Positions 2,111 through 51,594 of a stretch of DNA of 64,000 nt are shown piece after piece. How positions within the stretch are numbered: position 1 is the first letter of the stretch; each line of letters opens with the position of its first letter. Below the pieces are notes generated by a model. It was not told the DNA's origin. It worked only from the letters and a program-made list of their open reading frames with translations, and ran no database searches. The stretch is taken from contig OY776562.1 in assembly GCA_963675785.1 (NCBI GenBank), positions 2,560,001 to 2,624,000 on the forward strand, written 5' to 3'. Both the position numbers and the translations under genes were made by a program. The DNA is from Anaerolineae bacterium. GTDB lineage: Bacteria > Chloroflexota > Anaerolineae > UBA1429.

Positions 2111-3105
2111 GCGCCAGAATCGGACTCATCGCCAACCCCGCCGCCGGAAAAGACATCCGTCGCCTGATTGCCCACGGCACCAGCATGGATAATCAAGCCA
2201 AGATCGCCATGCTGCGGCGCATTCTAGTGGGCTTGCAGGCCATGGGACCGATCAACGTGTTGGCTATGCCAGATGCCAGCCATCTCATTCAGCGTGCTCT
2301 GGAGGGCATTGGTGGCGTCAAGCCCCAGGTCGATTACGTGGACATGGCCGTCACCAACCTGCCTACCGATTCGACCAAGGCGGCCCAGGCCATGCGTGAG
2401 GCCGATTGTGCCTGCATTCTGGTGCTAGGCGGCGACGGCACGGCACGCATCGTCTCTCAGGCAGACGTGCCTCTGCTACCCATTTCCACCGGCACCAACA
2501 ACGTGCTGCCGGTAACCACCGAGGGCACCCTGGCTGGTATGGCCGCCGGAGCTATGGCACTGGGGCTCATCGACGCCAACCGGGTGTGTTATCGCCACAA
2601 GTGGTTGGAAATTCGCGACAACGACACTTATGTCGACCGCGCCTTGGTGGATGTGGCCGTCATTCGCGGCCAGTTCATCGGCGCCAAGGCCGTGTGGGAT
2701 ACCTCGCGCCTGGTACAGGTGATTGCTACCCGTGCCAATCCCATGTCCACCGGTATTTCGGCCATCGCTGGCATGTGCTGTCCGGTCGCCGTGAGCGAGC
2801 CGCACGGCGTGGCCCTGACTATTGGGCCGGATAGCAGCAAATCGGCCAGTCATCACATTCGCGCGGTCATTGCCCCGGGTCTGGTCGAGAGTGTGGGCAT
2901 TCAGGCTCACCGCAGCATCGCCCCCGATGAGTCCGTGGCCATTGTCGACGAGCGGCCCCTGGTCATCGCCCTTGATGGTGAACGTGAGATCGTGCTGAAC
3001 GCCCCCTCGCGGGCCACCGTCACCCTGCACGATGACGGGCCTTGTATTATCGATCTGGAAGCGGCCGTTCACCAGATGGTCAGCCGACACTTGTTCACAG
3101 TCTAG
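2107..3105 (+). CDS. NAD kinase-like protein, AcoX (acetoin catabolism protein X) type
   Basis: IANPAAGKDIRRL, LGGDGT, STGTNN and ALDGERE motifs; ATGA overlap with rbsK. Confidence 0.8.
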   Translation: MSARIGLIANPAAGKDIRRLIAHGTSMDNQAKIAMLRRILVGLQAMGPINVLAMPDASHLIQRALEGIGGVKPQVDYVDMAVTNLPTDSTKAAQAMREADCACILVLGGDGTARIVSQADVPLLPISTGTNNVLPVTTEGTLAGMAAGAMALGLIDANRVCYRHKWLEIRDNDTYVDRALVDVAVIRGQFIGAKAVWDTSRLVQVIATRANPMSTGISAIAGMCCPVAVSEPHGVALTIGPDSSKSASHHIRAVIAPGLVESVGIQAHRSIAPDESVAIVDERPLVIALDGEREIVLNAPSRATVTLHDDGPCIIDLEAAVHQMVSRHLFTV

Positions 3106-44090: not shown

Positions 44091-44180
44091 AAAATCTTGT
44101 TATTTGATTTGCACAGAACCCCGAGTCGAGTAAACTCCGCTGGCAGTTCATCAATTGAACATGTCCAGGAGGTAGTCGCC

Positions 44181-45290
44181 GTGAAGACTGTTAAAATCGG
44201 TATCATTGGATGTGGAAATATCTCATCCTCATATTTTGAGACAGCAAATGCCTTTGGCGCCATCGAATGTGTGGCCTGTGCAGACCTTGACCTCGAACGC
44301 GCCCAAGCGAGAGCGGAAGAATTTGGGATTCCTTGTGCTTGTACTGTAGACGAGCTCTTGGCCAACAAGGAAATCGAAATCGTTATCAACCTGACCACTC
44401 CTCAGGCCCACCGAACAGTGAGTGTTGCTGCGCTGCAAGCGGGTAAGCACGTCTACACTGAAAAGCCGCTGGCCGTAACCCCAGAAGATGGCATGGCCAT
44501 CCTGGAAGCGGCCCAAAAAGCCAACTTGCGGATTGGTTGCGCCCCGGGTACACCTCTCGGTGCCGGGCTGCAAACTTGCCGCAAGCTCATTGATGATGGC
44601 GTCATTGGCACACCCGTTGCCTGCTCGGCCTTTATGATGAGTCACGGCCACGAGAGCTGGCATCCCGATCCTGCTTATTATTACCAAATCGGCGCTGGCC
44701 CCATGTTCGATATGGGCCCCTATTATCTCACCGCTCTTACCACCCTGCTTGGTCCTATTTCGCGCATCTGCGGCACAGCCGGTATTCAGATCCCCGAACG
44801 CACCATCACCAGTCAGCCTAAATACGGCGAAAAGATCATCGTGCGCACACCAGACCATGTAGCCGGCACCATGACCTTTGCCAGCGGCGCCATTGGCACC
44901 ATCATTACCACCTTTGCCACCTGGCCCTCGCAACTGCCACGCATCGAGATCTATGGCACCGAAGGAACACTCAGCGTGCCCGATCCCAACACACTAGGTG
45001 GCCCCATCAAGCTTTGCAAGGCGGGCAGCAAAGAATGGGAAGAGATTGAACTAGCCTTCCCACACAGTGTGCGCAAAGATATGTGGGGACTCGGCGTGGT
45101 AGATATGGCCTATGCGATCCGCAGCAATCGTCCCCAGCGCATCACGGGCAAGCAGGCGTACCATGTACTCGAGTGTATGCAGGCATTTCTCAAATCGTCC
45201 GAAGAAGCCCGTTATTACGACGTCCAGAGCACTTTTGACCCTCCCGCACCATTGCCGTTGGGACTCGACGCTTATGAACTCGATGAATGA
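44181..45290 (+). CDS. Gfo/Idh/MocA family oxidoreductase
   Basis: IGIIGCGNIS, GKHVYTEKP, WHPDP..YY..GAGPMFDMGPYY; GTG 44181 after AGGAGG. Confidence 0.9.
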   Translation: MKTVKIGIIGCGNISSSYFETANAFGAIECVACADLDLERAQARAEEFGIPCACTVDELLANKEIEIVINLTTPQAHRTVSVAALQAGKHVYTEKPLAVTPEDGMAILEAAQKANLRIGCAPGTPLGAGLQTCRKLIDDGVIGTPVACSAFMMSHGHESWHPDPAYYYQIGAGPMFDMGPYYLTALTTLLGPISRICGTAGIQIPERTITSQPKYGEKIIVRTPDHVAGTMTFASGAIGTIITTFATWPSQLPRIEIYGTEGTLSVPDPNTLGGPIKLCKAGSKEWEEIELAFPHSVRKDMWGLGVVDMAYAIRSNRPQRITGKQAYHVLECMQAFLKSSEEARYYDVQSTFDPPAPLPLGLDAYELDE

Positions 45291-45308
45291 TCAAAACGAG
45301 GGCTTGGC

Positions 45309-45337
45309 TTGACAGACATACAGCCCTGCTGTAGACT
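45309..45337 (+). promoter_or_regulatory. Promoter of the arg operon
   Basis: TTGACA (45309-45314), 17 bp, TAGACT (45332-45337). Confidence 0.75.
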
Positions 45338-45361
45338 GTTGCTATTATGCAAGGGAAAAAG

Positions 45362-45415
45362 ATGATCGTGATCGCTAACTTTCAGAGGCGCAGCATGAGG
45401 ACTAGGCCGGACTAA
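45362..45415 (+). CDS. Putative arg leader peptide MIVIANFQRRSMRTRPD
   Basis: 17-codon ORF after AAGGG; 4 Arg codons within 7 (AGG CGC AGC ATG AGG ACT AGG); lies between the promoter and the leader terminator. Confidence 0.65.
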   Translation: MIVIANFQRRSMRTRPD

Positions 45416-45456
45416 TGTCTGGGTAGTTGCGCTTGAGTTGGGAACATGATACCCAC

Positions 45457-45486
45457 AAGGGCTCTCCAGACGGAGAGCCCTTTTTT
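45457..45486 (+). terminator. Attenuator terminator ahead of argC
   Basis: AAGGGCTCTCC-AGAC-GGAGAGCCC-TTTTTT, about 23 nt before the argC start. Confidence 0.85.
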
Positions 45487-45509
45487 CGTTTATGGCCAGG
45501 AGCAGAACT

Positions 45510-46532
45510 ATGATCAAAGCAGGGGTCTTGGGCGCTACAGGATTCGCGGGTAACGAGCTCGTAGATATTCTTTTACGGCATCCCGAGGTTGAAATTGCCT
45601 TTCTTTCTTCCGCAAGCTATGCTGGAAAACGCTATTGTGATACCTGCAGGTCAACCTTTAAGATGACTTTGGTGACCCCTGAGGCCGTGCCCTATGCAAA
45701 CGCTGATATAGTCTTTTTATGCCTGCCTCATGGTGCCTCATCTGCTTATGCCAAGCTAGCCATAGAGGCTGGAGCCTGCTGTATTGATCTCTCGGCGGAT
45801 TTCCGCTTGCGAGATCTAAGCATCTACGAAACATGGTACGGCCAACATCAGGCACCCGAACTACTATCGCAAGCGGTTTACGGCCTCACCGAGGTTTATC
45901 GCGACAGCTTGGTCGGGGCCAAATTGGTAGCTAACCCGGGTTGCTACCCCACCGGTCCCCTGCTAGCGCTCATTCCCTGGCTCAAAGCCGGTTTGATCAA
46001 ATCCAAGCACCTCATTATTGATGCCAAGTCGGGCACATCTGGAGCGGGGGCCAAACCGTCCGAAAAAACGCACTTTATGAACGTGCATGAGAATTTCTCG
46101 GCGTATAACATCGGTCGGCTACATCGCCATGTGCCTGAAATCGAACAGGAACTTGCTGGTGCAGCCGAACAGGATATTCAGATCGTTTTTAGCCCTCACT
46201 TGCTGCCGATTACACGTGGCATTCTCTCCAATATTTATGTCACCGCAATAGATGGTACTAGTGAGCAAGACCTACGCGCGAGTTGGGAAACAACCTATGC
46301 CGATGAGCCCTTTATCACGCTATGTGCAGCGGGCAAACTTCCCGAATTGGCAGATGTGGCCCGTACCAACGCCTGCCACATGGCGTTGACACCCGCTGGA
46401 CGTGAAGGTGAGTTCATTGTCACCACGGCCATCGACAATCTGGTCAAAGGCGCTTCTGGCCAGGCCGTGCAGAACATGAACGTGATGTTTGGACTAGAAG
46501 AAACCCTGGCGCTGACCGGAGGCAAAGCCTAA
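45510..46532 (+). CDS. argC: N-acetyl-gamma-glutamyl-phosphate reductase
   Basis: GATGFAG, DLSADFRL, ANPGCYPT, SGTSGAG, HRHVPEI, DNLVKGASGQAVQN. Confidence 0.95.
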   Translation: MIKAGVLGATGFAGNELVDILLRHPEVEIAFLSSASYAGKRYCDTCRSTFKMTLVTPEAVPYANADIVFLCLPHGASSAYAKLAIEAGACCIDLSADFRLRDLSIYETWYGQHQAPELLSQAVYGLTEVYRDSLVGAKLVANPGCYPTGPLLALIPWLKAGLIKSKHLIIDAKSGTSGAGAKPSEKTHFMNVHENFSAYNIGRLHRHVPEIEQELAGAAEQDIQIVFSPHLLPITRGILSNIYVTAIDGTSEQDLRASWETTYADEPFITLCAAGKLPELADVARTNACHMALTPAGREGEFIVTTAIDNLVKGASGQAVQNMNVMFGLEETLALTGGKA

Positions 46533-47308
46533 TGCCACCTATCCTCGTTCTCAAAGTTGGTGGGGCCGAGCTAGCAGACCGAGAAGCACTTGAGTTGTTC
46601 GTTCAGGCTGCTGTGGCTGCAACTCGGAAGGCCCATCTCATCATTGTTCACGGCGGCGGCCCTGAAATCGCTGCAACCCAGCAAGCCTTGGGCCTAGAGC
46701 CACGCTTCGCCGACGGCCTGCGCATCACCGATGACGCCTCTTTGCGCGTAGCCGAGATGGTACTCTCTGGTCTGGTGAACAAGCGCTTGGCTGGCGCCCT
46801 GACTATCGCGGGAGCCCCAGCTCTGGGCATCTCCGGCATCGATGCAGGCCTGCTTACTGCCCAGCGGCTTACTCCCCAAGGCCAGAATATTGGCTGGGTG
46901 GGCGACATACACAGCGTCAAGGTCGGATTATTGATCAGCTTGTCTTCACTAGGTCTAATTCCCGTGGTCTCACCCATCTCAATGGATGAGACAGGGCAGC
47001 ATTACAACGTTAACGCCGATTCAGCAGCGCTGGCCATCGCTCAAGCACTCAGCGCCGATGAACTGGTCTTTCTCACCAACGTACCTGGTGTACTCCTCAA
47101 TGCCCAACTCTTGTCCACGCTAGATGGCACCGACATCGAAAACCTGATTGCCGAGGGTACTATTTCCGGAGGCATGATCCCAAAAACACGCTCCGCCGTA
47201 CAAGCAACCCGCCAGGGTGTGGCCTGCGTACGTATCACTAACCTAGAAGGACTCGCCACCGACAGCGGTACCCGCGTCGTTCTGCACAAAGTACAGGAGC
47301 AAGCCTGA
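46532..47308 (+). CDS. argB: Acetylglutamate kinase
   Basis: KVGG, VHGGGPEI, GLRITD, NVNAD, GGMIPK. Confidence 0.92.
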   Translation: MPPILVLKVGGAELADREALELFVQAAVAATRKAHLIIVHGGGPEIAATQQALGLEPRFADGLRITDDASLRVAEMVLSGLVNKRLAGALTIAGAPALGISGIDAGLLTAQRLTPQGQNIGWVGDIHSVKVGLLISLSSLGLIPVVSPISMDETGQHYNVNADSAALAIAQALSADELVFLTNVPGVLLNAQLLSTLDGTDIENLIAEGTISGGMIPKTRSAVQATRQGVACVRITNLEGLATDSGTRVVLHKVQEQA

Positions 47309-48507
47309 TGACGAACACACAAGAAATCCGCGACCTAGAGAACAAGTACGTACTCCAAACCTATTCACGAGCGCCCTTTGTGCTCGACCATGGTGAAGGC
47401 GTCTATCTCTATGACACCGATGGTAAAGCCTATTTGGACTTTGTCAGTGGTATTGCGGTAAACGCTTTGGGCTATGGGGACCTAGAAGTACGCGAAGCCA
47501 TCGTCGATCAAGTCGACAAGCTGATCCACGTCTCCAATTTGTATTACACCCAGCCACAGGCTGAACTGGCCGAACTGTTGGTCAAGACATCCTTCGCCGA
47601 CCGCATCTTTTTCTGCAACTCGGGCGCCGAGTCCGTTGAAGGAGCCATCAAGTTTGCTCGTAAATGGGCAAAAACTCATTACGGCAAGGGCAAGAACTGT
47701 TTTGTCTCGCTCTCGGGTGCATTCCACGGACGCACCATGGGGGCCTTAGCCCTTACGCCGCGTCCTCATTATCAGGACGCCTTCCGGCCGCTCATGCCTG
47801 GCGCACGTTTGGCCGAATTCAATAACCTCGATTCGGTGGCAGCCCAGATGGACGAATCCGTTTGCGCCATCATCGCTGAACCGGTGCAAGGCGAAGGGGG
47901 CGTGAATCCTGCCGATCCCGAATTTCTTCAGGGACTGCGCGAACTGTGCGACCGCTATCACGCCCTGTTGATCTTTGATGAGGTGCAATGTGGCCTGGGC
48001 CGCACCGGCAGCCTCTGGGCACATCAACAATACGATATCGAACCGGATATGATGACCACGGCCAAACCCGTCGGGGCAGGCCTCCCCATGGGGCTGGTTT
48101 TCTTAAAGCAGCATGTGGCTGATGCCATTGAACCCGGCGATCACGCCAGTACCTTTGCCGGTGGGCCGGTGGTTTGCGCCGCCTCAAAGGTTGTCGTATC
48201 GCGCGTTGCCAATCCCAGTTTTCTAGCACACGTACAAGAGATGGGTGACTATCTCGTCGCCGGCTTGAAGGATATCGCTTCACGCCAGCCTGTCGTTGAA
48301 GAGGTACGTGGCTTGGGTTTGATCATCGGCATTCAGTGCAGCTCCAGTGTTGGCCCTGTGGTCAGGGCCTGCTATGAAGCCGGTTTGCTCACCTGTAGTG
48401 CAGGACCCAACGTGCTGCGTCTGTTACCGCCACTGATTATTGAAAAGGGCGACGCCGACAAGGCACTCGCCATGATTGAGGAGGCTTTGCGTGTCATCGG
48501 GGAATAA
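47308..48507 (+). CDS. argD: Acetylornithine aminotransferase
   Basis: SGIAVNALG, NSGAES, FHGRT, EPVQGEGG, DEVQCG.GRTG, AKP (PLP Lys). Confidence 0.92.
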   Translation: MTNTQEIRDLENKYVLQTYSRAPFVLDHGEGVYLYDTDGKAYLDFVSGIAVNALGYGDLEVREAIVDQVDKLIHVSNLYYTQPQAELAELLVKTSFADRIFFCNSGAESVEGAIKFARKWAKTHYGKGKNCFVSLSGAFHGRTMGALALTPRPHYQDAFRPLMPGARLAEFNNLDSVAAQMDESVCAIIAEPVQGEGGVNPADPEFLQGLRELCDRYHALLIFDEVQCGLGRTGSLWAHQQYDIEPDMMTTAKPVGAGLPMGLVFLKQHVADAIEPGDHASTFAGGPVVCAASKVVVSRVANPSFLAHVQEMGDYLVAGLKDIASRQPVVEEVRGLGLIIGIQCSSSVGPVVRACYEAGLLTCSAGPNVLRLLPPLIIEKGDADKALAMIEEALRVIGE

Positions 48508-48508
48508 A

Positions 48509-49009
48509 GTGCTCTGCCAGGAAGGTGCTATCATCGTTCGTAAGGCGCATATTGATGATGTGCCGGCCATGGCAGAGCTGATCAACAGCTATGGGCGTCA
48601 AGGCATCATGCTGGCACGCTCACGTCACCAGCTCTATCAATTCATCCGAGATTTTGTTGTTGCAGAGAATGAGCAAGGTCGTATCATTGGATGTGGTGCG
48701 CTTTCGATTGTCTGGTCCGATCTCTGCGAAATCCGCTCTCTCGCCGTCCAGGACGGATGGCTCGGCAAAGGTGTCGGTGGTCTTATGGTTCGGGCGCTCG
48801 CCCGTGAAGCGCAACAGCTCGGTGTCAGCCGAGTGTTTGCACTCACCTACCGCGTGGGATTTTTTGAGCACTTGGGATTCCATCAGGTCCCCCACGCAGA
48901 GCTGCCCCACAAGATTTGGGGAGATTGTTTGAATTGCCCCAAATATCCCAACTGTGATGAAGTTGCACTCATGATGCAACTAGACGCCGAACACAAGGAG
49001 AACAACTAA
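48509..49009 (+). CDS. Short ArgA-type N-acetyltransferase (putative N-acetylglutamate synthase)
   Basis: [37 protein letters not shown]; located inside the arg operon; GTG start assumed. Confidence 0.8.
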
Positions 49010-50217
49010 TGTCCGTCAAAAAGTGTGTACTGGCCTATTCCGGTGGACTCGATACCTCAGTCATCGTGAGCTGGCTCAAAGAAAACTATGGCTGTGAAGT
49101 CATCTGTGTCACCGCCGACCTAGGGCAGAACGAGGAACTGGACGGCCTGGAGGCAAAAGCCTTGGCTACCGGTGCCAGCAAGATCTATATCGAAGATATG
49201 CGCGAAGAGTTTGTCAAAGATTATATCTGGCCGACACTCAAAGCCGGCGCCATTTATGAGCGTGATTACCTCTTGGGAACCTCATTTGCCCGCCCACTCA
49301 TTGCCAAGCGTATGGTCGAAATCGCCGAAAAAGAAGGGGCCGACGCTGTAGCCCACGGCTGCACTGGCAAGGGAAACGATCAAGTTCGATTTGAACTTTC
49401 TTTCAAGGCCTTGAATCCCAAACTAACCATCATCGCCCCCTGGCGCGAATGGGACATCCGCTCGCGTGAAGACGCCCTGGAATACGCTGCCGCACACAAT
49501 ATTCCGGTAGCTCAGAGCAGAAAATCCATCTACAGTCGTGACCGCAACATCTGGCACATGAGCCACGAAGGCGGCATCCTCGAAGATCCTTGGGAAGAAC
49601 CTCTTGAAGATATGTTCGTGCTGACCAAGAGCCCTGAAGAAGCCCCGAATGTGCCCGAATATATCGAGATAGGTTTTGAAGAAGGCGCGCCCGTCACCTT
49701 GAATGGCACCAGCTTGAGCCCCCTACAGATGGTTACATCATTGAACGAGCTCGGCGGCAAACACGGCATTGGCCGGGTTGATATGGTAGAAAACCGCCTG
49801 GTGGGTATTAAATCGCGTGGCGTCTACGAGACGCCCGGTGGCACTATACTCTATGCCGCCCACAAGGGCCTTGAAAACCTTACTCTCGACGGTGAAACCT
49901 TACACTATCGAGACCTGCTCTCGCAGAAATACGCCGAAGTGGTTTACAACGGCCGTTGGTTCACCCCCTTGCGTGAGGCTCTTGATGCCGCTATCAATGT
50001 AATCGAAAAGACCGCCACCGGCACCGTGCGCGTCAAGCTCTACAAGGGTCAGGCCACCGTCGTCGGTCGTAAGTCACCCTATAGCCTCTATCGTGAAGAC
50101 TATGCCACCTTTGGTGAGGATGATGTATACAACCAGGCCGATGCAGAGGGCTTTATCAATCTCTTTGGCCTTTCCATGAAGGTGCGCGCTTTGCTCAACA
50201 AAGAAGGTCAGGAATAA
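49009..50217 (+). CDS. argG: Argininosuccinate synthase
   Basis: [40 protein letters not shown]. Confidence 0.97.
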
Positions 50218-50220
50218 ACC

Positions 50221-51594
50221 ATGCCGGCACTCTGGGGAGGACGATTCACCGAGGATACTGACGCGCTCATGTGGGCCTTTAATGCTTCCATCAGTGTCGA
50301 TCAGCGCATGGCGTTGGTCGACATTTGGGGCAGCCAAGCCTACGCACGCGCCATCCAAAAGGCCAGCGTGCTCACAGAGAACGAGCTAACTAAACTCGTC
50401 AGCGGCTTGGATGTAGTCGCTGACGAGTTTGAGCAAGGCACCTTTGCCTTGGCCGATAAGGACGAAGACATCCATACCGCTGTCGAACGGCGTTTAGGCG
50501 AGATCATCGGCCCACTGGCTGGCAAGCTACATACCGGCCGTAGCCGTAACGATCAAGTGGCTACCGACGTGCGCCTTTACATGTTAGAAGCGCTGGGACA
50601 CCTCAGTGAAATGCTTGACGCCACCTGCAAAACCATTGTGGACAAAGCCGCCGAGCATATCGATGTACTGATGCCAGGCTATACTCATATGCAGCCCGCG
50701 CAACCGGTGCGTTTCTCTCATTGGCTCATGTCCTACTTTTGGATGTTGGACCGCGATCGAGAGCGCTTGGCCGACCTGACCAAGCGGGTATCGTGCTGCC
50801 CCTTGGGAGCCGGTGCTTTGGCTGGCAACGCTTACGGTATTGACCGTCAGGCTCTGGCCAAAGACCTAGGATTCGATGACATCACATGGAATAGCATGGA
50901 TGCTGTCGCCGACCGTGACATGATCATCGAATGCCTGTCTTGGGGAGCGCAGATTGGTTTGCACCTCAGTCGCCTGGCCGAAGATATCATCATCTGGTCG
51001 ACGCGCGAGTTTGGTTTTGTGCACCTCTCAGATCGCTATTCGACCGGATCGAGCATCATGCCCCAGAAAAAGAATCCCGACAGTATGGAGCTGGTGCGCG
51101 GCAAAACCGGCCGTCTGCTGGCCAACCTGATCCAGATCATGGCCGTATGCAAGGGCATCCCTTCCACCTATGACAAGGACCTGCAGGAAGACAAAGAAGC
51201 CCTGTTCGACACGCTGGATACCTTGGGGATGCTGCTGCCCATCACGGCTGGTGTTGTCGCCACCATGACGATCGATGCGGACAAGATGGCCGCCGCATTG
51301 AGTGATGAACTCATCGCCACCGATATCGCTGATTATTTGGTGAAAAAAGGGCTCCCCTTCCGCGAAGCGCATGGTATAGTTGGCAGATTGGTACTACTAA
51401 GTGAGGACAAAGGCGTAGGTTTGTGCAGCCTTTCCTTGGAGGATTATCGCTCGACTTGCGAATTGTTTGAGGCCGATGTGCAAGGGGTGTTGTCTTTTGA
51501 GGCCTCTGTAGAGGCGAGGGACACAGCAGGAGGCACAGCACGTTCGGCTGTGTTAGAACAAATCACCGAGGCGCGGAAGCGTTTAGCCCAGTAA
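50221..51594 (+). CDS. argH: Argininosuccinate lyase
   Basis: LWGGRF, HTGRSRNDQ, PGYTHMQ.AQ, GSSIMPQKKNPD. Confidence 0.97.
   Translation: MPALWGGRFTEDTDALMWAFNASISVDQRMALVDIWGSQAYARAIQKASVLTENELTKLVSGLDVVADEFEQGTFALADKDEDIHTAVERRLGEIIGPLAGKLHTGRSRNDQVATDVRLYMLEALGHLSEMLDATCKTIVDKAAEHIDVLMPGYTHMQPAQPVRFSHWLMSYFWMLDRDRERLADLTKRVSCCPLGAGALAGNAYGIDRQALAKDLGFDDITWNSMDAVADRDMIIECLSWGAQIGLHLSRLAEDIIIWSTREFGFVHLSDRYSTGSSIMPQKKNPDSMELVRGKTGRLLANLIQIMAVCKGIPSTYDKDLQEDKEALFDTLDTLGMLLPITAGVVATMTIDADKMAAALSDELIATDIADYLVKKGLPFREAHGIVGRLVLLSEDKGVGLCSLSLEDYRSTCELFEADVQGVLSFEASVEARDTAGGTARSAVLEQITEARKRLAQ

Follow-up and report, generated by a model that had tools for sequence, protein, structure and literature searches.

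The arginine leader and the operon behind it

The window analysed here, a stretch of 64,000 nucleotides (positions 2,560,001 to 2,624,000 of contig OY776562.1, assembly GCA_963675785.1), belongs to an Anaerolineae bacterium of the phylum Chloroflexota whose genome is a single 3.2-Mb contig, 94.8% complete. It carries the gene row argC-argB-argD-GNAT-argG-argH (45510-51594), in which the genes were named by their NCBIfam matches, all above cut-off, and which probably constitutes one transcription unit, since the open reading frames (ORFs) overlap or abut. Upstream lies an unrelated gene for a Gfo/Idh/MocA-type oxidoreductase (44097-45290), and between this gene and argC a leader region is found (Table 1). 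A preliminary description of this DNA had read the region as a ribosome-mediated attenuator; the promoter, the 17-amino-acid upstream ORF (uORF) with four Arg codons in seven, three of them AGG, the terminator and argC were all recovered at the same positions. The evidence presented below favours, with a probability of about 0.85, a ribosome-mediated transcription attenuator that would couple the six genes to the supply of charged tRNA-Arg.

In a pattern scan, the promoter matched 10 of the 12 consensus positions and ranked second among the promoter-like sites in 8.5 kb, and the leader transcript would probably start near 45344. The leader ORF has an in-frame alternative ATG at 45347. With the codon frequencies of this genome, the chance of at least four Arg in a given 7-codon window is 3e-4 (about 4e-3 over the uORF), and that of at least three of four Arg codons being AGG is 6e-4. 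AGG, the rarest Arg codon of the genome, accounts for 5.4% of its Arg codons and 3.1 of every thousand codons, and its reader, tRNA-Arg(CCU), is encoded by one gene. The terminator, also located by pattern scan, is an 11-bp GC-rich stem (45457-45467/45472-45482) with the loop AGAC, followed by TTTTTT (45483-45488), and 22 nt separate its end from the start of argC.

Judged by this sequence logic, the element is a member of the leader-peptide attenuator class. A translatable short ORF follows the promoter and precedes the first structural gene; it contains a cluster of codons for the amino acid that the operon produces; an intrinsic terminator immediately precedes the first gene; and the pairings 1:2, 2:3 and 3:4 are mutually exclusive, with segment 1 overlapping the regulatory codons.

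Table 1. Features of the arginine leader and its operon, and related copies of the scaffold; positions refer to the window or to the locus named
Feature	Position	Strand	Remarks
Promoter, sigma-70-type	45309-45337	+	TTGACA 45309-45314, 17-nt spacer, TAGACT 45332-45337; pattern scan
Shine-Dalgarno-like AAGGGA	45350-45355	+	6 nt 5' of leader ATG; putative role, from sequence
Leader peptide ORF	45362-45415	+	MIVIANFQRRSMRTRPD*, 17 codons; ATG 45362, TAA 45413-45415
Regulatory Arg codon block	45386-45406	+	AGG CGC 45386-45391, AGG 45398-45400, AGG 45404-45406
Segment 1, 5' strand of anti-antiterminator	45365-45412	+	45365-45394 and CCGGAC 45407-45412; overlaps Arg codons
Segment 2	45417-45450	+	GUCUGG 45417-45422, GUUGCGCUU 45426-45434, out to 45450; partners segment 1 or 3
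Segment 3	45457-45471	+	Terminator 5' arm and loop; conserved CCAGAC 45466-45471 complements segment 2
Segment 4	45472-45488	+	Terminator 3' arm 45472-45482, U-run 45483-45488
argC	45510-46532	+	TIGR01850, 388 bits
argB	46532-47308	+	TIGR00761
argD	47308-48507	+	TIGR00707
GNAT / N-acetylglutamate-synthase-like gene	48476-49009	+	NF005840, 200 bits
argG	49009-50217	+	NF001770
argH	50221-51594	+	TIGR00838
Pro-rich copies	L130 1501-1668, L139 1501-1647, L161 1501-1657	-	Before proS
Tandem Lys-type pairs	L097 58-213, 228-394; L098 101-258, 270-436; L105 1501-1650, 1665-1801 (-)		Before homocitrate synthase

Competing RNA structures

The 1:2 pairing put forward in the preliminary description turned out to be the predicted fold of the leader (z = -3.7; 1 of 200 shuffled sequences folds as well). 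In this fold, AGGCGCAGC (45386-45394) pairs with GUUGCGCUU of segment 2, and CCGGAC pairs with GUCUGG into a small hairpin that holds the stop codon in its loop and is enclosed by a long helix (45365-45450). The alternative GTCTGG:CCAGAC pairing proposed with it was present as well: GUCUGG(G) (45417-45423) pairs with (U)CCAGAC (45465-45471), and this 2:3 structure occupies nearly the entire terminator 5' arm. Computed separately, the energies were -33.7 kcal/mol for the 1:2 helix, -20.0 for the 2:3 structure and -20.7 for the 3:4 terminator, an order of modelled helix energies that matches classical attenuators.

On this anatomy, transcription would start from the promoter at 45309-45337 and a ribosome would translate the 17-codon leader. 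When Arg-tRNA is plentiful, the ribosome would clear the four Arg codons and terminate at the UAA (45413), segment 1 would pair with segment 2, and the terminator (45457-45482) with its U-run would form, ending transcription before argC. When Arg-tRNA is scarce, especially the reader of the rare AGG, the ribosome would stall on the Arg codons and cover segment 1; segment 2, including GUCUGG, would then pair with the emerging terminator 5' arm and loop (CCAGAC), the terminator would be blocked, and RNA polymerase would enter the operon.

The order of events was modelled on a transcript cut at 45471, before the terminator 3' arm exists, on which static ribosome masks were placed. With a ribosome whose A site holds the third or fourth Arg codon, the antiterminator forms in the cut transcript (GUCUGGG with UCCAGAC, and GC.GCUU with AAGG.GC), and the terminator 5' arm is paired upstream with P 0.83, against 0.44 when the RNA is free or the ribosome has reached the stop codon. 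When the same folds were made for 25 relatives, the stall on the last Arg codon exceeded the free RNA in 23.

Conservation of the leader upstream of argC

An ArgC search was made in 40 relatives, and the 450 nt upstream were read at the 30 best loci. The resulting alignment, A1, comprised 25 loci: the window's own, those of 23 of 24 same-family genomes and one from a genome of another family. The element, with its Arg-rich uORF, three pairing segments and terminator, was present before argC in these 23 same-family genomes, and the 24th gave no close ArgC match with this query; the Arg codons before orthologous argC, whose loss would have counted against the preliminary description, were kept. 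The consensus of A1 reads ...(C)TG AGG AGG AGC CNN AGG ... CCGGAC N4 GTCTGGATAG ... GCCTGGGC ... CCAGCTCTCCAGACGGRGAGCTGG T6. The N-terminal sequences of the leader peptides vary while the Arg block is kept, and, according to the genome, the stop codon precedes the first hairpin, lies within it or follows it. A promoter of the form TTGAC[AT]-N16-18-TAnnnT stood at a constant relative position in 24 of the 25 leaders.

The terminator-state structure, consisting of the outer 1:2 helix, the small hairpin and the terminator, was 92.5% paired on the 25 sequences and showed nine pairs changed on both sides; slid controls paired 25-52%, and none of 500 column shuffles reached any of five measures. 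In the terminator stem, compensatory changes were found in 6 of 11 pairs. The antiterminator (GTCTGGATAG..CTGG with CCAGCTCTCCAGAC) was 92.9% pairable in the 25 relatives, compared with 30-41% for slid positions. From the 25 leaders, RNAalifold recovered only the small hairpin and the terminator; the outer 1:2 and the 2:3 helices were specified by hand.

Other arrangements were seen among the loci read. In one relative (L002), a tRNA-Arg(CCG) gene at 2691-2764 (-) abuts the 5' end of the arginine leader, and this is the sole leader among the 25 without a TTGACA-N17-TAnnnT promoter; because of both features, the leader and its arg operon may be co-transcribed with the tRNA gene. Five loci were excluded from A1, namely L025, which had no leader, L029, which lay at a contig end, and L024, L026 and L028, taken upstream of argC in three other families of the class. 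The last three have different leaders of the same design that do not match the covariance model R1 described below: the uORF of L024 encodes RRR as CGA CGA CGA, that of L026 RRR as CGT CGT CGT, and that of L028 several Arg codons, each followed by its own terminator before argC. On sequence grounds, attenuation by Arg leaders may thus be wider than the R1 scaffold.

One scaffold with different codons across Anaerolineae

A covariance model, R1, was built from the 25 aligned leaders, and its matches in samples of the class and of the phylum were counted at E <= 0.001. In the genome of the window it matched two places, the arg leader (96 bits) and a second copy (38 bits) at G000:C1:820620-820765 (+), which corresponds to L065 1501-1646. 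This second copy has a Lys-rich leader (...KKSKSKKPDPWSG, with KKSKSKK), whose ORF ends ...LSKKSKSKKPDPWSG, and a family search identified lysW (TIGR01206) and homocitrate synthase (hcs, TIGR02146) downstream. It appears to head a ten-gene alpha-aminoadipate (AAA)/LysW lysine operon, in which lysW and hcs are the only family-confirmed members; the remaining ORFs, named from their order and similarity, are homoaconitase, homoisocitrate dehydrogenase, lysX, lysY, lysZ, lysJ and lysK. The two leaders align codon for codon, the arginine copy reading AGG CGC AGC ATG AGG ACT AGG CCG GAC and the lysine copy AAG AAA AGC AAG TCG AAG AAG CCG GAC.

Matches of R1 were found in 75 of 151 Anaerolineae genomes and 52 of 101 genera, often with two to four copies per genome, and in 6 of 150 other genomes of the phylum, five of which came from one family. 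A search with the leader pattern gave 33 matches in 185,579 species genomes, 31 of them in Anaerolineae, Anaerolineales or Chloroflexota metagenome-assembled genomes; those in Streptomyces and Sulfitobacter are probably due to chance.

The relation between codons and downstream genes was then assessed in a family set of 100 loci, which gave 103 matches when re-searched with R1. For each match, the frame in which the hairpin arm reads CCG GAC was taken and the residues of the 10 codons on the 5' side of the arm were tallied blind; downstream genes were named by tblastn with the Arg and Lys enzymes of the genome studied here. Before ArgC or ArgG (49 hits), Arg outnumbered Lys in 42, and before LysW, homocitrate synthase or LysX (37 hits), Lys outnumbered Arg in 32. 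Since the scaffold is the same and its codons match the downstream genes, specificity appears to be set by the codons. In the other 17 of the 103 hits such a gene was absent or the available sequence too short, and eight of these carry three or four prolines in the block. Pro-rich leaders (e.g. ...SPNSPNPTPDCRSG) were located directly before proS in L130, L139 and L161 (TIGR00408, 576-610 bits), where the scaffold looks like a Pro-sensing attenuator of an aminoacyl-tRNA synthetase.

Codon usage within the blocks points in the same direction. In the 49 Arg-type leaders, 138 of the 489 codons upstream of the hairpin encode Arg (AGG 63, CGA 41, CGC 21, CGT 7, CGG 5 and AGA 1); because synonymous Arg codons are exchanged, it is the identity of the amino acid, to judge from these sequences, and not a nucleotide word that is kept. 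Lys-type leaders use AAG 127 times and AAA twice. An upstream in-frame ATG without an intervening stop was found in 74 of 100 members for the frame that reads the hairpin arm as Pro-Asp, compared with 15 and 9 for the other frames.

The competing segments are likewise conserved in this wider set. In aligned hits, the segment-2 hexamer is GTCTGG in 92 of 103, and in 88 of 103 it has a fully complementary partner of six nucleotides, with G-U pairs allowed, within the terminator 5' arm and loop; the corresponding values were 0-8% for neighbouring hexamers and 13% for shuffled ones. Where the hexamer differs, compensation was observed in three cases: in L117, ATCTGG is matched by CCAGAT in the hairpin arm as well as in the terminator loop; in L094, ATCTGG is matched by CCAGAT in the terminator loop; and L133 combines GCCTGG with CCAGGC. 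Support for the 2:3 helix from covariation is limited to these three sequences of the wider set.

Several members depart from the simple scheme of one leader before one operon. Tandem Lys-type attenuators, each with its own leader ORF and terminator, precede homocitrate synthase in three genomes (Table 1). LysW-LysX operons with Arg-rich or mixed leaders (ARSPRRKKPD, VKRSPREEPD, LRAKRSKVYPRPG) were noted in L136, L132, L135, L147 and L150, the first two of which carry two LysX-like genes; from their sequences, all five may be ArgW/ArgX-type or dual Lys/Arg carrier-protein operons. In L131 the scaffold stands before a type II proS and the leader is unclear. Pro-rich leaders were also seen in L123, L125 and L145, before a 215-aa protein without an NCBIfam family, which we take, from an impression of its N-terminus, to resemble a metallophosphoesterase, and in L116, before a 197-aa TIGR00730 (LOG-like) protein.

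Neighbouring genes

The GNAT gene of the operon is of the short N-acetylglutamate-synthase type and sits between argD and argG, while argJ lies far from the operon (G000:C1:128642-129835). A perfect sigma-70 consensus promoter (12/12; TTGACA, 17 nt, TATAAT) was found at 44067-44039 (-), facing a ribosomal protein S1-like gene with four S1 domains at 43847-42780.

Other regulators and alternative explanations

Arginine biosynthesis is the textbook case of repressor control by ArgR, and repression through ArgR and ARG boxes and T-box leaders are the usual controls of bacterial arg genes. Both perform the task proposed for the present leader, namely feedback control of arginine synthesis, and neither ArgR nor a T-box was found here. 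The absence of an argR gene, which the preliminary description had noted for its stretch, extends to the entire 3.2-Mb genome, where Arg_repressor_C (PF02863) was not found, ARG-box operators not having been searched for. Among 151 genomes of the class this domain was found in one, and a control search recovered it in 8 of 14 named genomes. No T-box was seen either, again as first described: RF00230 gave no match at E <= 10 in 44800-46000 and none at E <= 0.1 in 11 related loci. None of the riboswitch and leader families of Rfam 15 matches the leader (44800-46000) or these 11 loci, and the only Rfam match in the interval lies on the opposite strand inside argC (13 bits, E = 2.5). By this sequence comparison, the element is outside every catalogued RNA family.

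Alternatively, the choice between terminator and antiterminator could lie with a trans-acting factor (a protein, a small molecule or an uncharged tRNA, for example) that binds the conserved RNA (CCRGAC, GTCTGGATAG and CTCTCCAGAC), and the uORF would be incidental or merely help. A shared factor could explain why the same core precedes operons for three different amino acids. Also in favour of this reading, the sequence varies unusually little for a leader-peptide attenuator, with GTCTGG almost always retained, and the antiterminator shows no two-sided covariation among close relatives. However, the invariance of GTCTGG is also expected if the hexamer must pair with two partners, and the arg, lys and proS copies differ systematically in nothing but the codon block, which matches the product, so that a shared factor could not give the specificity. 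The synonymous exchange of Arg codons, the frame of the block, which is open from an ATG far more often than the other two, and the lack of any match to T-box or riboswitch models further argue against a trans-acting factor, which is considered unlikely. A ribosome-based sensor of another kind, in which the leader would report general translation capacity (e.g. the status of elongation factor P or of rare tRNAs) and hence ribosome speed rather than Arg supply, appears less likely still. Arg, Lys and Pro, the residue types of this scaffold, are known to slow elongation, and the favoured Arg codons are rare ones (AGG and CGA, 104 of 138); rare cognate codons would, however, serve a starvation sensor equally well by increasing its sensitivity, and a generic sensor does not predict that the residue type tracks the pathway, as it does in 42 of 49 and 32 of 37 leaders.

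The preliminary description had itself named a third possibility, in which the hairpin merely terminates the upstream oxidoreductase gene, argC is expressed constitutively from elsewhere and the uORF arose by chance. The hairpin does lie downstream of an unrelated gene that needs a terminator, and short ORFs are common. Conservation contradicts this possibility: there is a strong promoter between the end of the oxidoreductase ORF and the hairpin, the order promoter-leader-terminator-argC is kept in 24 of 25 loci, and the oxidoreductase gene is found upstream only at the window locus and, as one weak hit of 28% identity, at another. Moreover, the pattern scan showed no promoter-like site in 45488-45510. 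With the gene not conserved upstream and the promoter at a fixed distance in 24 of 25, a mere oxidoreductase terminator was ruled out, its probability being negligible.

Several observations weigh against the attenuator and have to be set beside the evidence for it. No such leader was found within 400 nt upstream of argF, argJ and carA of this genome, which lie elsewhere, directly behind other genes, so the attenuator would govern six pathway genes and only part of the pathway. In the full-length leader at equilibrium, the terminator was kept with P 0.86-0.93 under every ribosome mask tried, and the model therefore needs the usual kinetic argument; the folding with segment 1 masked that had been suggested at the outset thus yielded the antiterminator in cut transcripts and never at full-length equilibrium. 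Stalls on the first two Arg codons left the CCGGAC:GUCUGG hairpin intact and gave P of just 0.55-0.57. With static masks, the last-Arg stall exceeded the stop-codon ribosome in only 14 of 25 relatives; the other 11 are mainly leaders whose stop codon stands directly before the hairpin arm, where both states look alike. Fast ribosome release must be assumed for them: in the model, the two states can be told apart only if the terminating ribosome has left by the time segment 3 is transcribed, some 45-60 nt further on. The 25 close relatives show no two-sided covariation of the antiterminator, as its bases are nearly constant, and in the wider set the partners of the L093 segment-2 variant are not compensated. 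The codon block disagrees with the operon in 2 of 49 hits (Lys over Arg) and 3 of 37 (Arg over Lys), with seven further ties (five and two, respectively). Finally, related genomes are non-independent samples, which affects the conservation counts, and the E-values of R1 are rough.

Despite these points, the attenuator remains the best explanation. The preliminary proposal that stalling frees segment 2 and leads to antitermination is supported by the anatomy, by conservation and by the codon swap, from which we infer the order of folding events and the arginine response itself.

Relation to known attenuators

The enterobacterial attenuators trpL, hisL, leuL, thrL, pheL and ilvL have the same promoter-proximal short ORF with codons for the product, the same 1:2/2:3/3:4 alternatives, in which the regulatory codons overlie segment 1, and an intrinsic terminator just ahead of the first gene. 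The use of the rare cognate AGG recalls leuL, in which rare CUA codons are employed. The present element differs from them in its amino acid, arginine, in its occurrence in Chloroflexota and in matching no Rfam leader family by sequence or structure. [quoted passage not shown]

A leader-peptide attenuator of the alpha-aminoadipate lysine cluster of Thermus thermophilus was reportedly described by Tsubouchi et al. in the Journal of Biological Chemistry in 2005. In that account, Lys codons stand before an AAA/LysW-pathway operon, as in the sister copy at G000:C1:820620-820765, for which it would be the closest precedent by analogy; the Thermus leader is a lysine version and the element of the window an arginine version. 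The E. coli pheM-pheST leader, which controls an aminoacyl-tRNA synthetase by leader-peptide attenuation, resembles the Pro-rich proS copies rather than the element of the window, though with a different amino acid and an unrelated RNA. In fungi, the arginine attenuator peptide (the arg-2/CPA1 uORF) acts on translation, senses free arginine through the nascent peptide and stalls the ribosome at high arginine. This eukaryotic uORF likewise makes an arginine-pathway gene responsive to arginine; in the present leader a stall at high arginine would switch synthesis on, and a mode of the fungal type is therefore implausible.

For Arg-codon sensing, the closest precedent is orf34 of the Salmonella speF leader. 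There, ribosome pausing at consecutive rare Arg codons (AGG CGG) reports low arginine and alters mRNA folding, and Lys codons in place of the Arg codons abolished the arginine response (PMC6386406). That leader controls ornithine decarboxylase and not arginine synthesis, it acts through Rho-dependent termination and RNase G decay, in contrast to the intrinsic terminator and antiterminator found here, and the peptide core of orf34 is itself conserved (PMC6386406).

Significance for Anaerolineae

To our knowledge, the pathways classically described as attenuated do not include that of arginine. The preliminary description had likewise not recognized this as a standard mechanism for bacterial arg operons, and the full-text literature searched, from which most subscription journals and all supplements are absent, contained no account of arginine biosynthesis controlled by leader-peptide attenuation and none of such leaders in Anaerolineae. 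The same held for PMC2965389 and PMC4833913, which were searched by term. The mechanism is classical and not itself new; as far as searched, the amino-acid specificity and the RNA family are new to print. Judging from the sequence evidence, the element is real, conserved and almost certainly functional, an attenuator of the classical kind with a new specificity.

A broader view, which appears somewhat better than an even proposition, is that one paralogous scaffold (CCRGAC, GTCTGGATAG and the terminator-loop CCAGAC) controls several amino-acid pathways in Anaerolineae, its specificity being re-set by exchange of the codon block (Arg before argC/argG, Lys before lysW/hcs, Pro before proS). It would replace ArgR and lysine or T-box riboswitches across the class and would include the first ribosome-mediated attenuator of arginine biosynthesis. 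In that case, leader codons could separate LysW-type arginine operons from lysine operons, making the likely product of ambiguous LysW/LysX operons readable, and a change from AGG/CGC to AAG should turn the arginine switch into a lysine switch. R1 and its alignments describe an uncatalogued RNA family that can be used for annotating Chloroflexota genomes. A scaffold that carries Arg, Lys or Pro codons before matching genes amounts to a natural codon-swap experiment, and a whole bacterial class, mostly without ArgR, appears to use leader-peptide attenuation instead.

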